DNA of 64,000 bases from Eledone cirrhosa (Eukaryota): NCBI GenBank assembly GCA_964016885.1, contig OZ024746.1, positions 99,386,001-99,450,000 of the forward strand. The letters are read 5' to 3'. Positions within the stretch are counted from its first letter, which is position 1; every line of letters begins with the position of its first letter. Under the pieces are notes generated by a model, which had not been told where the DNA came from, did not search any database, and saw only the letters and a program-made list of their open reading frames with translations. The translations under genes and the position numbers were made by a program. Of this stretch, positions 8,151-60,341 are shown one piece after another.

Positions 8151-8810
8151 CTATTCTCAGCTAAGTTCCCAGGCGATGCGCGGACACTAGGAACCCATAT
8201 AAAAATAATAATAATTCAGTGGATGGAATAAAGCTAGCGAGGACTAAATTCCGGAGCACTGAAAAAATTCACTGCCTCTGGTCAGTGGCAGATTCTAAAG
8301 AATCAATCACGTGACACTGAGGTTAATCAGTTAGGAGTGGGGTGGTATTATGACAAGAGCCTACTACTACCATGAATAAGCAGTAAATTTTGGCAAGTTT
8401 TACTTAACAAATAATTTGGAGATAAATATAGAGAATTAGTACATTTACCAACATATGTGTACAGATGTTCACCTATGCTAGCAAATATATATGTTATGTC
8501 TTAGTACCTTTGTCGTTGTATGCAGGGGGATGCAGAACAATTATATGAAAGACGTAAAATAAGAAAATTTTAAAAATTAAAAATCATATATATATATATA
8601 TATAATTATATATATATATATAATTATATATATAATTATATATATATATATATAATTATATATATAATTATATATATAATTATATATATATATATAATTA
8701 TATATATAATTATATATATATAATTATATATATATATATATATAATTATATATATAATTATATATATAATTATATATATATATATAATTATATATATAAT
8801 TATATATATA

Positions 8811-8856
<46 letters not shown>

Positions 8857-8880
8857 ATTATATATATAATTATATATATA

Positions 8881-8934
<54 letters not shown>

Positions 8935-9024
8935 TATATATAATTATATATATATAATTATGTATATATATATATATATATAATTATATATATAATTATA
9001 TATATATAATTATGTATATATATT

Positions 9025-9080
<56 letters not shown>

Positions 9081-9242
9081 TATATATAATTATATATATA
9101 TAATTATATATATAATTATATATATATAATTATATATATATATTTATATATATATATAATTATATATATATAATTATATATATAATTATATATATATAAT
9201 TATATATATATATTTATATATATATATATTTATATATATATA

Positions 9243-9280
<38 letters not shown>

Positions 9281-9481
9281 TATATATATATATAATTATA
9301 TATATATATATATATATAATTATATATATAATTATATATAATTATATATATATATATATATAATTATATATAATTATATATAATTATATATATATATATA
9401 TATAATTATAAAAACAAATAACGAAACGAAATTAAATTTCGTTTCGTTTGTAACTCACTTTTGTATGACTGACGCTTAAAC

Positions 9482-9906
9482 AATTAAGTTAAAAATGTAC
9501 ATCCACATATGTATACTGAAATACTAGTATGCATATGAATACACACACGTGTACATATGTAGATGTACCGAGTTTTTCACTGGACAATTTACTGTGAGTG
9601 TCCAGCTATTCTGTATGTAGACACACAGACAAACCGGTTTTTAGAGTCATACTGGTTTTCGAGGAAACACCTTTCCTCTATTCTCCAGAAAGCCAGACAA
9701 GGAATATTGGACTAGTTTCGATGTTGTTACATCTCATCAGCAATATTTACCTATCTTCCGGCCTTTCTAGAGAATCGTAAAAGCACATATCGTTATATGC
9801 TTTTTCTATGAAAAACTCGGTACATCTACATATGTACACGTGTGTGTATTCATATGCATACTAGTATTTCAGTATACATATGTGGATGTACATTTTTAAC
9901 TTAATT
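9482..9906. repeat. 98-bp inverted repeats enclosing a hammerhead
   Basis: 9482-9579 is the reverse complement of 9809-9906. Confidence 0.9.
9703..9747 (-). ncRNA. Canonical minimal type I hammerhead
   Basis: AATATTG-CTGATGA-GATGT AACA ACATC-GAAA-CTAG-TC^CAATATT; full consensus core and GUC triplet. Confidence 0.88.
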
Positions 9907-9931
9907 ATATAATTATATATATATATATATA

Positions 9932-9969
<38 letters not shown>

Positions 9970-10421
9970 TATATATATATATATAATTATATATAATTAT
10001 ATATATATATATATAATTATATATATATATATTTATATATATATAATTATATATATATATTTATATATATATAATTATATATAATTATATATATATATAT
10101 ATAATTATATATATTTATATATATATAATTATATATATATATATTTATATATATATAATTATATATATATATATATTTATATATATATAATTATATATTT
10201 ATATATATATAATTATATATATATATATTTATATATATATAATTATATATATATAATTATATATATATATATTTATATATATATAATTATATATATATAT
10301 TTATATATATATAATTATATATATATATTTATATATATATAATTATATATATATATTTATATATATATAATTATATATATATATTTATATATATATAATT
10401 ATATATATATATATATATAAT

Positions 10422-10456
<35 letters not shown>

Positions 10457-10718
10457 ATAATTATATATATATATATATATATAATGTAAGTATGCATGTA
10501 TACGTACATACATATATGTATACAGACGTACAGTAGCATGCACATATATATATATATATACATATGCATACAGGTACACATACATATATGCACGTATCAG
10601 TTTAGCGGCGCTTATTATAACGTCGCTTTGTTCGTTTGTAAACAAACTGAACAGCCTGAATTTATGCCATACGGTGTTAAGGCAACCACGTCACCTTTTT
10701 GTTCAACACTGACACAGG

Positions 10719-25900: not shown

Positions 25901-26031
25901 TGATGATTTCTAATGAATGAAACAGTTCTAGTCCTGTAGAATCTCATCTATATTAAAAATATATTATATATATATATATATATAATATATATATATATAT
26001 AATATATATATATATATATAATATATATAAT

Positions 26032-26062
<31 letters not shown>

Positions 26063-26507
26063 TATATATATTATATATATATATATATATTATATATATA
26101 TATATATTATATATATATATAATATATATAATATATATATATATATATAATATATATATTATATATATATATTATATATATATATATATAATATATATAT
26201 ATATTATATATTATATATATTATATATATATATATATTATATGTATTATATATATATATATTATATATATATATATATATTATATATTATATATATTATA
26301 TATATATATATATAATATATATATATATAATATATATATTATATATATATATATATTATATATATATATATATAATATATATATATATTATATATATTAT
26401 ATATATATATATTATATATTATATATATTATATATATTATATATATATATATTATATATATATATATTATATATTATATATATTATATATATATATATTA
26501 TATATTA

Positions 26508-26550
<43 letters not shown>

Positions 26551-26566
26551 ATATTATATATATATA

Positions 26567-26620
<54 letters not shown>

Positions 26621-28829: not shown

Positions 28830-28929
<100 letters not shown>

Positions 28930-29084
28930 TTGGTGCTCTGAAATAGCGATGTATATATGAATGTATATATAGTGTATTTGGTAATAAACCGTATGCTTAA
29001 TTAAAAGCATTTTGAAGACCTTACGCTATTGTTTAAAACTAGTGACTATGTCACTTACTTCTTTTTTCAACAAACAAAGGGAGG

Positions 29085-29132
29085 TAAGCTGACAGATCTC
29101 TGTTTCATACTGTTGCTATTCCTCAGAGCTTA
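29085..29132 (-). ncRNA. Type I hammerhead
   Basis: TAAGCT-CTGAGGA-ATA GCAACAG TAT-GAAA-CAG AGAT CTG-TC^AGCTTA, on an extended stem at 29064-29154. Confidence 0.82.
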
Positions 29133-29350
29133 GCACTCCCTTTGTCTGTTGAAAATTATGAATGTTGGATTCTTATAGAATTCCAATAATAATCAGGAAC
29201 TGATTATACCGAGCGGTTGCCGGTCCAGCAGGAATTGAAAATTAGAATTGGTGCTCCGAAATAGCGATGTATATATGAATGTATATATACAGTGTATTTG
29301 GTAATACACTGTATGCTTAATTAAAAGCATTTTTAAAGTAGTAAGTGACA

Positions 29351-29429
<79 letters not shown>

Positions 29430-52172: not shown

Positions 52173-52320
52173 CCTGGGACTCTAGGACTAACTCCTGTAA
52201 TACAACGAAGTTACCTTTCCTGGGACTCTAGGACTAACTCCTGTAATACAACGAAGTTACCTTTCCTGGGACTCTAGGACTAACTCCTGTAATACAACGA
52301 AGTTACCTTTCCTGGGACTC
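52173..52320. repeat. 46-bp tandem repeat, 3.2 copies
   Basis: CCTGGGACTCTAGGACTAACTCCTGTAATACAACGAAGTTACCTTT at 52173, 52219, 52265 and partially 52311. Confidence 0.95.
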
Positions 52321-53900
52321 TTTTTTGTTATTAATGGTTTCTAACCAGAGCTCTGTGTCTAGTACAGGTAATCGATGGTTGGGGTGTTTGCTTAGGTAGT
52401 CTGTAGTAACTTTAATACTCTGGTGGATGGAGTTAGCTATTTGCTGGATGCTTTCCATGGTGTTTTTCTCTAATTCCTGACTGTTCTCTAGTGGGGGTGT
52501 TTTTACTACGATGTTTATATCATCAACGTAGCGGGAGTACATAATCAGGGTTAAGAAGTTGTTGTCTTCTAATTGTTCTTTAAGTTTTTTGTCCCACCAT
52601 ACCATGAATAGGTTAGCTATGTCACCTGCAATGCTAACGCCAATGGCTGCTCCCTCCTCTTGGGCATATATTTTTCCATTAAATTTGAATATATGTTCCT
52701 TAAGGGTTAGTTTTATACTGGCCCCCACCGCATGTGCAATCATTTTCTTTAGTTCATCATGGTTTTCGGGGGTCCGTATGGCTCTGGTCCACCCGTTCCA
52801 TCTTTCTGTGTGGGTTTTCATGGCCATTGAGGTAATGGTAGGTGGTCTGCCTCTTGCTGGCCTTGTGGGGCAGAGGTTGCTAAGGTCATACGTATCTAGA
52901 TAATCATTATTATATGTGAGTTTAAGTAGGAGTCCCAGCTCACTGGTATCAATTCCACGGAATTCAACATTGCTCTCACTGATAATTTCTACGCATTTCT
53001 CCACAGAAAAATCCACGTCAATGGATGGGTATAGGGACACTATATCCATACTACCTATTATACAGTCTGTTCGGTCCCTAGACAGGTTATTTTCGCTGAT
53101 TCTGCTGAGGAGGCCCTCCATGCTGTCACATATATCCGGGACATTTCAATGATGGGGCGTACGATCAGGGAGAGGAAGTAGAAAAGTCTGTAGTTGCTAG
53201 CAATGTTAGCTCCACAGATTGGCCGTGTTGGTGGTCCTGTGACTGGGTCACTGTACGTCTTATGGTCTTTTCCAAGCCCATACAACGTTGGCACGTCATT
53301 GTTCCAGGCCTGGAAGTTGTTGGCAGTCCGTTTATTAGGCTGCATTATGTTTGTCCACATCATCATATGAGCGTTGAGGGTTTTCTCCCTATCCTCATGC
53401 TCTTGTGGTGTTACTTCTCTTGTGTTAGGGATGTGTGGTTGCATTGCTTGGATGTAGTTTGACAGACTGCCAGACTTGTCTGTTGGAAAGCATGCAATCT
53501 CTCCATTAATCGACCGCTGCATGAGCTTACGCAAGCCATTTGCAGATTTTTCTACCAGTTGCTGGGCCTCTATTCTATTTTGCTTCTTGCTATACTGTTC
53601 TATAATACTTCTAAGTTTAGATCTAGCTATATTAAATTGTGCTTCTGTTTGTTAATCGACCTGCGACGGCAATTGCATGCGTTTGTTAAAAGCTAAAGTC
53701 GTGGCGTGGACTCGTCGTAAATCGAAGGACATATCAGAAGGGTTATAACAAGTAGAGTTCCAGGTTGTGTGGTGTGTTCTATTGCTATTGTTAGTCGTGT
53801 TGTTGTATCTATTTCTATTTCCACCAACAGCTTAATGATTGTTTCTATGTCTCTCATTCTTACTCCTGTTCCTTCCTTCTGACTCCTTGTTATTATCTAA
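52321..53900 (-). mobile_element. Penelope-like retroelement RT region (non-Naiad type), frameshifted near 53140
   Basis: ORFs 53058-53534 and 52303-53121: PTDKSG, LYGLGKDHK, RPICGA, SMDIVSLYPSID, Y.Q..GAAIG, RYVDD, LPVLDTELW. Confidence 0.85.
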
Positions 53901-54903: not shown

Positions 54904-54920
54904 TATATATACATATGTAA

Positions 54921-55027
<107 letters not shown>

Positions 55028-55104
55028 GTATACATATATATATATCTATATATATGTATATATATGTATATATATATATATATGTATATATATGTATATA
55101 TATG

Positions 55105-55137
<33 letters not shown>

Positions 55138-55138
55138 G

Positions 55139-55185
<47 letters not shown>

Positions 55186-55214
55186 GTATATATATGTGTA
55201 TATATATATATATG

Positions 55215-55245
<31 letters not shown>

Positions 55246-55324
55246 GTATATATATGTGTATATATATATATATGTATATATATATATGTATATATATATA
55301 TATGTATATATATGTATACATATG

Positions 55325-55357
<33 letters not shown>

Positions 55358-55400
55358 GTATATATATATGTATATATATATATGTATATATATATATATG

Positions 55401-55491
<91 letters not shown>

Positions 55492-55548
55492 GTATATATA
55501 TATGTATATATATATGTGTATATATATATGTATATATATATGTATATA

Positions 55549-55628
<80 letters not shown>

Positions 55629-59726: not shown

Positions 59727-59785
<59 letters not shown>

Positions 59786-60224
59786 TGTATGTATAGTATA
59801 TTTAGCAATATACCGTGTATTTAATTAAAAACATTTAGAAAACCATACGCTATCAGTTTTAAAGTAGTGACTAAGTCACTTCTTTTCGGCGAAATAAGGG
59901 AACGAAGCTGACAGTCTGTTTCACGCTGGTTGGCGTTCATCATAGCCGCGTATTGCTATGCTTTCGCCGAAAATTATAGAAGCTGGATTCTTATAGAATT
60001 CCAGTAATAATCAGGAGCTGATTATACAGAGCGATTGACGGTCCAGCAAAAATTAGGTATTAGGATTGGTGCTCTGAAATAGCGATGTATACATGAATGT
60101 ATATATAGTAGATTTGGCAATATACCGTATGTTTTATTAAAAACATTTAAAAGACCATACGCTATCAGTTTTAAAGTAGTGACTATGTCACTTACTTCTT
60201 TTCGGCGAAAGCAGGGGAGTACGT

Positions 60225-60266
60225 GGCTCTGATGAACGCCAACCAGCGTGAAACAGACTGTCAGCT
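60225..60266 (+). ncRNA. Canonical type I hammerhead (inverted C3-mutated copy at 59906-59947 on minus)
   Basis: GGCT-CTGATGA-ACGC CAACCA GCGT-GAAA-CAG A CTG-TC^AGCT. Confidence 0.85.
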
Positions 60267-60284
60267 TGTCTCCCTTCTTTCGCC

Positions 60285-60341
<57 letters not shown>

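Follow-up and report, generated by a model that had tools for sequence, protein, structure and literature searches.

An array of about 312-nt units, lying in a 64-kb stretch of Eledone cirrhosa DNA, positions 99386001-99450000 of contig OZ024746.1, that was analysed as a whole (hereafter the window), carries two hammerhead hairpins that face opposite ways: the units at 59781-60092 and 60093-60290 are direct repeats, except for an 88-nt hammerhead hairpin that is reverse-complemented in unit 2. We consider it moderately probable that the array represents a protein-free, non-LTR retrozyme-like repeat inserted in (TA)n, and that the flipped hairpin is a short inverted end-piece of a Penelope-type insertion, joined to the rest of the array via stem I of the ribozyme. 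Genome-wide, the wrong-way hairpins of this family are tied to head-to-head joints or to array 5′ ends only. Both the element and the insertion scar are of known kinds, and the detail added here is that the palindrome of the scar is the ribozyme's own stem.

The order of the region is (TA)n, flank segment FL, hairpin, flank segment FR, FL, second hairpin and (TA)n. On the left lies a (TA)n microsatellite (59729-59780), which is the 3′ side of the element in the ribozyme sense. The array begins right after it, at FL position 1-2, with the FL segment of unit 1 (59781-59882, minus strand) and without the 35-nt tail; this starting point is one of the two recurrent 3′ termini of the family. The unit 1 hairpin (59883-59973, minus strand) has the normal family orientation and is a type I hammerhead with a C3 to A change (plus-strand T at 59943) and a degraded stem I. 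It is followed by the FR segment (59974-60092, minus strand), the last 35 nt of which (FR 85-119) are the terminal tail of other copies, and by the FL segment of unit 2 (60093-60198, minus strand), oriented as in unit 1. The unit 2 hairpin (60199-60286, plus strand) is reversed with respect to its own flank and sits at the 5′ end of the array. Unit 2 lacks a right-hand flank: the array stops inside the 3′ arm (TTTCGCCGA) and a second (TA)n microsatellite (60287-60338) adjoins it.

A repeat search returned a direct repeat of 109 nt (59773-59881 versus 60085-60193, 90% identical) with a spacing of 312, in agreement with the period of about 312 that the initial annotation had given for the units starting at 59781 and 60093, and an inverted repeat of 88 nt (59886-59973 versus 60199-60286, 89% complementary). 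The outer arm TTTTCGGCGAAA is present at 59883 and at 60199 and the outer arm TTTCGCCGA at 59962 and at 60278, the second arm reading TTTCGCCGA(AAA). On the plus strand the unit 2 hairpin has a canonical core, with CTGATGA at 60229-60235, GAAA at 60250-60253 (GAAAC from 60250) and a GTC triplet whose last base is 60262, and with a predicted cleavage site after C60262. The core of the unit 1 hairpin, on the minus strand, is equal except for ATGATGA (plus strand TCATCAT, 59937-59943), in which C3 is replaced by A. The earlier reading of a minus-strand ribozyme with a mutated C3 in unit 1, and of a canonical plus-strand ribozyme at the same position of unit 2, is thereby borne out.

As to the assignment of these hairpins, no Rfam model matched at its gathering score anywhere in the 64-kb window. 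The best match at a relaxed threshold was that of Hammerhead_HH9 at 60212-60283 on the plus strand (22.5 bits, with a gathering score of 52); the same model gave 16.6 bits in unit 1 (59910-59942, minus strand) and 25.1 bits on a canonical family copy, again versus a gathering score of 52. Rfam microRNA matches were set aside, being located on TA and GT microsatellites. Unit 2 has the type I hammerhead core, CUGANGA...GAAA...cleavage triplet UH, in the correct order, and CTGATGA...GAAAC is kept in 80 of 128 hairpins of the family. The predicted folds reached -42 kcal/mol (z -4.7) for the 96-nt hairpin, -38.1 kcal/mol (z -6.7) for the hairpin of subfamily B and -91.3 kcal/mol (z -7.1) for a whole 316-nt unit. 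For the analysis of covariation, 40 hairpins of subfamily A and 30 of subfamily B were aligned to a named structure with 24 pairs. Of the 1554 cells, 94.8% were paired, versus 36.7-48.6% with slid partners. Four pairs changed on both sides between the subfamilies, of which two lie in helix II (CG to UA, GC to AU) and two in the outer stem I (both GC to AU); these compensatory changes amount to few independent events. The core motif, the three helices and the compensatory changes support the predicted hammerhead fold. Helix III has a length of 3 bp in A and 4 bp in B, and in this short helix the predicted hammerheads resemble ribozymes that are reported to act as dimers (PMC4209133).

The window holds another copy of the family, at 28923-29352, which belongs to subfamily B and has the layout of the A array, a period of 318 and a 20-bp stem of other sequence. 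Its arms are TTTTCAACAAACAAAGGGAG at 29064 and CTCCCTTTGTCTGTTGAAAA at 29136, and its minus-strand core, CTGAGGA...GAAAC...GTC, is canonical because core position 7 is free. The initial annotation had described this homolog as having a different but still paired long stem together with a hammerhead; the arms and the compensatory changes between the subfamilies agree with it, and every factual point of the initial annotation proved correct. In this copy a 35-nt terminal tail (FR 85-118; 28922-28955, minus strand) stands directly after (AT)n. Next come an FL segment (28957-29062, minus strand), as matched to the FL piece of the A array, and the hairpin in normal orientation (29063-29155, minus strand), whose helix II has ATAG where the subfamily has ATAC. 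They are followed by FR and a second FL that is shortened near FL position 60 (29156-29336, minus strand). The 5′ end of the B array, before (GT)n, is made of an inverted FL piece of 18 nt (29337-29354, plus strand), identical at 17 of 18 positions to the reverse complement of FL 106-89, and this is the window's second short inverted end-piece.

The family spans subfamilies A and B and counts thousands of copies in the 3.0-Gb genome, as estimated from first-look candidates: querying the genome with the unit returned 2823 of them for subfamily A, 40 of which were scored, and querying it with the hairpin of subfamily B returned 1822. The loci were annotated with pieces taken from the window (FL, 60093-60198; inner part of the hairpin, 60211-60277; FR, 59974-60092). 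The periods are 312 and 318 nt, most loci carry arrays of 1.3-2.5 units with partial tandems being common, and the GC content is 0.37-0.38 in A and 0.33 in B. None of the 25 ORFs of at least 130 aa in the window overlaps either array. The ORFs near 52-54 kb contain only a decayed scrap of reverse transcriptase, which is uninformative on a Penelope partner.

On the plus strand of the window the normal order of the family is FL(+), antisense hairpin and FR(+), with the ribozyme on the opposite strand; unit 1 and the subfamily B copy have this orientation, and unit 2 represents the rare state. With no mismatch allowed, the normal left junction of subfamily A (FL end, arm and antisense core) was found 159 times genome-wide and the wrong-way left junction (FL end, arm and sense core) once, in the window itself. 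For subfamily B, at up to 2 mismatches, the corresponding numbers were 965 normal junctions and 16 wrong-way rows. Among the left junctions, the wrong-way state then accounts for 1 of the 160 exact matches of subfamily A and for 16 of the 981 rows of subfamily B.

To define the context of the wrong-way hairpins, the search for subfamily A was extended to up to 3 mismatches; the wrong-way pattern searches were able by design to find only joins inside the stem. It returned 27 rows, 15 of which are true wrong-way junctions, the others being 10 normal copies that matched by chance, locus L041, without a hairpin, and locus L037, with a local patch inside the ribozyme. FL lies on both sides of one hairpin in 12 of the 15 true rows, which are fold-backs centred on the ribozyme; in the typical case (L033, L038 and L050) (TA)n is followed by the tail, FL, the hairpin, inverted FL down to position 1 and again (TA)n. 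The other three are array ends, namely the window, L054, where a tail-bearing FL is followed by a sense hairpin that stops inside the 3′ arm beside unique DNA, and L034, where the hairpin plus 11 nt of inverted FL stand at the end of the array. Subfamily B gave the same two contexts, with FL on both sides in 11 of 16 wrong-way rows and array ends in 5 of 16 (L161 and L163-166, the latter being four copies of one event, about 44 kb apart). Joints centred on the hairpin were overall on the FL side in 31 rows versus 1 on the FR side (L170).

These observations bear on the proposal of the initial annotation that the strand changes at the extended stem I. In the window the flank does run unbroken into the arm and a stem of the sense type follows, and the relatives L032, L033 and L054 have a visibly chimeric stem; that part of the proposal stands, and the part that invoked an inversion in place does not, with no such case found. 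The cleaved RNA end was also considered as a general switch point and was dropped: L032 and L033 switch several bases before the cleavage site. In L161 the sense arm starts at the cleavage site.

Inverted arms are a feature of the whole family. The sample for subfamily A consisted of 60 of the first 68 exact rows of the normal left junction, and is therefore conditioned on one such junction; 7 loci already included in the analysis and 1 lying 4 kb from such a locus were left out. The sample for subfamily B consisted of the 29 best loci. A head-to-head junction was present in 23 of 60 A loci and in 23 of 29 B loci (38-79% of the sampled loci), and tail-to-tail junctions in 2 loci of each subfamily, that is, 46 head-to-head versus 4 tail-to-tail. 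Once refined, the head-to-head junctions proved to be scattered over the whole unit, with only 2 of 45 located in the hairpin.

The strands of the stem, which make up about 18% of the unit, hold 26 of 90 arm ends, at most a modest excess and one measured in regions picked post hoc, so that the stem does not dominate as a site of switching and is not claimed here as a junction hotspot. The suggestion that the flip may be the origin of the fold-back copies is reversed by the same data. Inverted arms occur family-wide and their junctions are spread over the unit, with those few in the hairpin, so it is the fold-back process that explains the flip and not the flip that gives rise to the fold-backs.

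The ends of the arms fall at two fixed points, the 35-nt tail (FR 85-119) or FL position 1. Pairs of arms with one tail terminus and one FL-1 terminus account for 15 of 23 cases in A and 11 of 23 in B, and pairs with like termini for none in A and 7 in B. Of these fixed termini, 47 of 72 in subfamily A and 24 of 46 in subfamily B have a (TA)n tract outside them at a distance of no more than 20 nt. At the junctions themselves, 26 of 45 refined cases have 1-30 nt that fit both arms, and the longest clean overlaps, of 17 and 20 nt, belong to the hairpin-centred loci L068 (A) and L153 (B). The inner part of the hairpin goes with the arm that bears the tail in roughly one half of the cases, and with the opposite arm in the rest, as a symmetric annealing step would predict.

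This architecture has close counterparts in the literature on endonuclease-bearing Penelope-like elements. Their insertions are described as strongly 5′-truncated, with partial tandems, and often have an inverted, 5′-truncated copy next to their 5′ end (Craig et al., 2021, PMC8557442); the same source reports a tail of 30-40 bp at one end, hammerheads in the terminal repeats and, for Naiads, a preference for a (TA)n target. At inverted Penelope junctions palindromes are often reported, and overlaps of 15 bp between direct and inverted repeats can occur (Arkhipova et al., 2013, PMC3846280). As far as these sources describe them, Penelope-like elements share with the family studied here the 5′ truncation, the partial tandems, the inverted 5′-truncated neighbour copy, the tail at one end, (TA)n, the palindromes or short overlaps at the junctions and the hammerhead. 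They carry an ORF for reverse transcriptase and endonuclease, whereas the family here does not and is hence non-autonomous. Moreover, in our family the ribozyme itself supplies the junction palindrome, in the form of its extended stem I, so that the joint reverses the ribozyme.

We infer the enzymology of a Penelope-type insertion from this architecture and from published work. Target-primed reverse transcription would start from both DNA ends of a broken (TA)n site, each end priming cDNA on a multimeric or circular repeat RNA, and the places of priming would be the two TA-rich sites within the unit. These cDNAs would have like polarity and, because of this shared polarity, could be joined only through short self-complementary stretches, among which stem I, with its 17-24 bp, is the longest. 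A join in stem I would produce one hairpin common to two opposed arms, with the ribozyme reversed with respect to one arm. The window's second arm would consist of the hairpin alone, either made short or trimmed later beside (TA)n. As it reaches neither fixed terminus, this short arm departs from the textbook form of a second arm, and here the model is at its weakest. Very short synthesis, a later loss on the (TA)n side, or self-priming with hairpin transfer could each be the cause. A single-event origin of the two arms appears unsupported at the level of sequence, arms of the same locus being no more alike than random copies (identity 0.902 versus 0.896 in A, p 0.30; 0.930 versus 0.916 in B, p 0.11). 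Tandem neighbours are also no closer to each other than random copies, and the comparison of arm similarity is uninformative on this point because all copies are about equally diverged.

The third of these causes can also be taken as an explanation of its own, which we regard as rather unlikely. The cDNA of a 5′-terminal ribozyme hairpin would fold back and prime its own second strand; the closed end would then be opened and recopied by hairpin transfer, as at parvovirus termini, giving either orientation of the inner part. The process would be coupled to insertion, with no second primed arm required. The flips that stand at array ends (the window, L054, L161 and L163-166), where the stem is followed by no more than a few bases, and the palindromic extensions of 11-14 nt past the stem in L034 and L068 speak for it, and palindromes at inverted Penelope junctions are read in this way by Arkhipova et al. 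(2013, PMC3846280). Against it, the fold-backs with long arms have mostly unlike termini, tail and FL-1, while snap-back predicts like termini. It would also lead one to expect flip and flop in near-equal numbers, whereas the wrong-way orientation is far rarer than the normal one and flipped hairpins are, as a rough estimate, a few per cent of the terminal ones; in the 60-locus sample the terminal hairpins were about 4-5 normal and 1 flipped, these being small numbers.

An inversion in place after insertion, in which a template switch during replication, or recombination between the stem arms, reversed the inner ~67 nt of a terminal hairpin, seems unlikely. Monttinen and Loytynoja (2022, PMC8794818) document that template switching can invert the loops of RNA hairpins, and accidents of the palindrome at the DNA level do occur in the family: in L037 a 19-nt stretch in the ribozyme has its last 17 nt equal to the reverse complement of the adjacent bases, and in L041 the hairpin is excised. 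The signature of such an inversion would be a hairpin flipped between both of its normal flanks, and this was never found; the window copy, being without its right flank, is not judgeable alone. FR follows the wrong-way hairpin in none of the 15 true A rows and in none of the 16 B rows. The mirror of the search for left junctions pointed in the same direction: the wrong-way right junction of subfamily A (sense core, arm and FR) had no exact match genome-wide, compared with 39 exact matches of the normal right junction, and its 6 rows at up to 3 mismatches were all normal copies with deletions, with no true case among them. Internal hairpins are several-fold commoner than terminal ones in the 60-locus sample, and despite this no internal flip was found, versus 3 terminal flips in A and 2 terminal events in B. 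In the cases described in PMC8794818, the stem halves stay intact and the asymmetric part between them is reverse-complemented, as here, but this happens in place, with both flanks kept and mostly in loops of 4-8 nt, not of ~67 nt; in our family no hairpin was found flipped in place, and the flips go with array 5′ ends and fold-back joints.

A further reading gives the stem an active part. Besides being an RNA helix, the extended stem I would be a programmed joint at the DNA level, a palindrome used for a strand switch of the reverse transcriptase or for self-priming at the 5′ end of the template. We hold this to be doubtful. If true, the hairpin would double as a 5′ end-processing signal, seeding fold-backs able to yield transcripts of both polarities.

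Two independent insertions, with a truncated copy of opposite orientation landing beside a 1.3-unit array in one microsatellite, are improbable to a greater degree. (TA)n is a preferred target, so neighbours do happen, and tail-to-tail neighbours with (TA)n between them exist, for instance at L067. In the window the join lies seamlessly within the stem, and the parts are not separated by (TA)n; random neighbours would predict as many tail-to-tail as head-to-head junctions, instead of 46 versus 4; and a lone hairpin fragment with no fixed 3′ terminus is unlike a product of target-primed synthesis.

Finally, an assembly error at a repeat between two microsatellites appears very improbable: assemblies are known to have difficulty with tandem and inverted structures of the Penelope type (PMC8557442), and in the read check (three runs from one sample, containing 0.38-0.41 of the words and compared at 95% and 99% likeness) the read contigs of the repeat family were only 31-70 nt long and none bridged the junction with 31 letters on both sides of 60198/60199, but a like junction is present in 14 other A rows and in 16 B rows, several of them beside unique flanks (L054, L034, L068 and L161), and the unit 2 hairpin is not a misplaced copy of its neighbour, since the two differ at about 10 of 88 positions.

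The proposed insertion of two primed cDNAs joined through the stem also has a parallel in the 5′ inversion of L1 by twin priming (PMC2837659, PMC2912911). There, according to these papers, an inverted 5′ part is joined to a direct 3′ part at junctions of short homology during target-primed reverse transcription, as in our model, and the enzyme belongs to a different family. Unlike in L1, the template here would be tandem or circular, so that both parts copy one sequence and can form a palindrome.

With respect to the element itself, animal non-LTR retrozymes are described as tandem repeats of ~300 bp with low GC and type I hammerheads (Cervera and de la Pena, 2020, PMC7229834). The family here resembles them in its tandem units of ~300 nt, predicted type I hammerhead, low GC and thousands of copies; the periods of 312 and 318 nt lie in their range of about 150-450 bp. 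It is likewise without ORF or LTR, PBS and PPT are putatively absent, and its unit is highly self-paired (z -7.1). The available text of PMC7229834 and of the 2026 preprint on retrozymes (bioRxiv 10.64898/2026.07.22.740005) yielded no (TA)n target, tail, inverted arms or wrong-way ribozyme, and that of Cervera and de la Pena (2014, PMC4209133) nothing on inverted copies or ribozyme orientation.

For the reading of such arrays, two consequences follow. At array ends the element's strand cannot be read from that of the hammerhead motif, and a ribozyme that faces the wrong way is no evidence for a new mechanism of rearrangement. Penelope-like elements have been named as the likely mobilisers of retrozymes (Cervera and de la Pena, 2020, PMC7229834), and the 2026 preprint argues for Penelope mobilisation from sequence similarity (Li, Clavereau and Pollet, 2026, bioRxiv 10.64898/2026.07.22.740005). 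The family in E. cirrhosa displays the complete footprint reported for Penelope-like elements, with the (TA)n target, the tail at one end, the two fixed 3′ termini and the inverted 5′ arms joined at short homology. This footprint and the 31-to-1 bias of its hairpin-centred joints support a Penelope-type mobilisation from structure, a line of evidence different from that of the preprint, and the flipped hairpin provides one concrete case for the question of which enzymes copy animal retrozymes, and how.

Several arrays of the hammerhead-bearing, retrozyme-like repeat have their 5′ ends within the 5′ strand of stem I (genomic loci L089:1590-1620, L108 and L137 in alignment A1), and the hairpin base is therefore a recurrent 5′ stop, also where an inverted piece is absent. 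Immediately upstream of these 5′ ends lies (TA)n.

A head-to-head junction, in which the main array is joined to an inverted second arm, is common to three loci of subfamily B (L131 at G000:C5:2397942, L132 at G000:C5:1767661 and L148 at G000:C3:324017809, given as contig and coordinate of the same assembly); unit coordinate 113 is joined there to 305-307 with an overlap of 5-7 nt. The identity of the junction reflects either a preferred joining point or amplification of the composite copy itself. An array whose terminal hairpin is flipped relative to its flank is present in four near-identical copies (L163-L166, G000:C2:338330107-338463115), spaced by about 44 kb, a layout that resembles tandem segmental duplication of a stretch of that length.

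The hairpin itself is altered at two further loci. In one hammerhead (L037:1461-1545, G000:C28, around 71957488), 19 bases stand where the 13 bases CAGCGTGAAACAG are expected, the final 17 being a reverse-complemented copy of the 17 nt immediately upstream; the replacement creates a perfect new hairpin and removes the core GAAA, and is a textbook short template-switch mutation. The other copy (L041, G000:C5:98073996-98074046) is devoid of the entire ribozyme hairpin: the left flank, FL, is followed by one arm-like TTTTCGGCGAAAA and then directly by the right flank, FR, with nothing else between them, as would be expected after bypass or excision of the palindrome.

As to the surroundings, an open frame of 280 codons on the minus strand of the window (52303-53145) gave a weak match to the reverse-transcriptase profile RVT_1 (27.6 bits, slightly below the cutoff of 29.6); it is the degraded remnant of a retroelement. 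Long (TA)n and TA-rich arrays (for example 8586-10483, 25949-26618 and 54904-55626) are unusually abundant across the whole window, which holds 121 tandem-repeat rows, and such arrays are preferred landing sites of the hammerhead-bearing repeat family.
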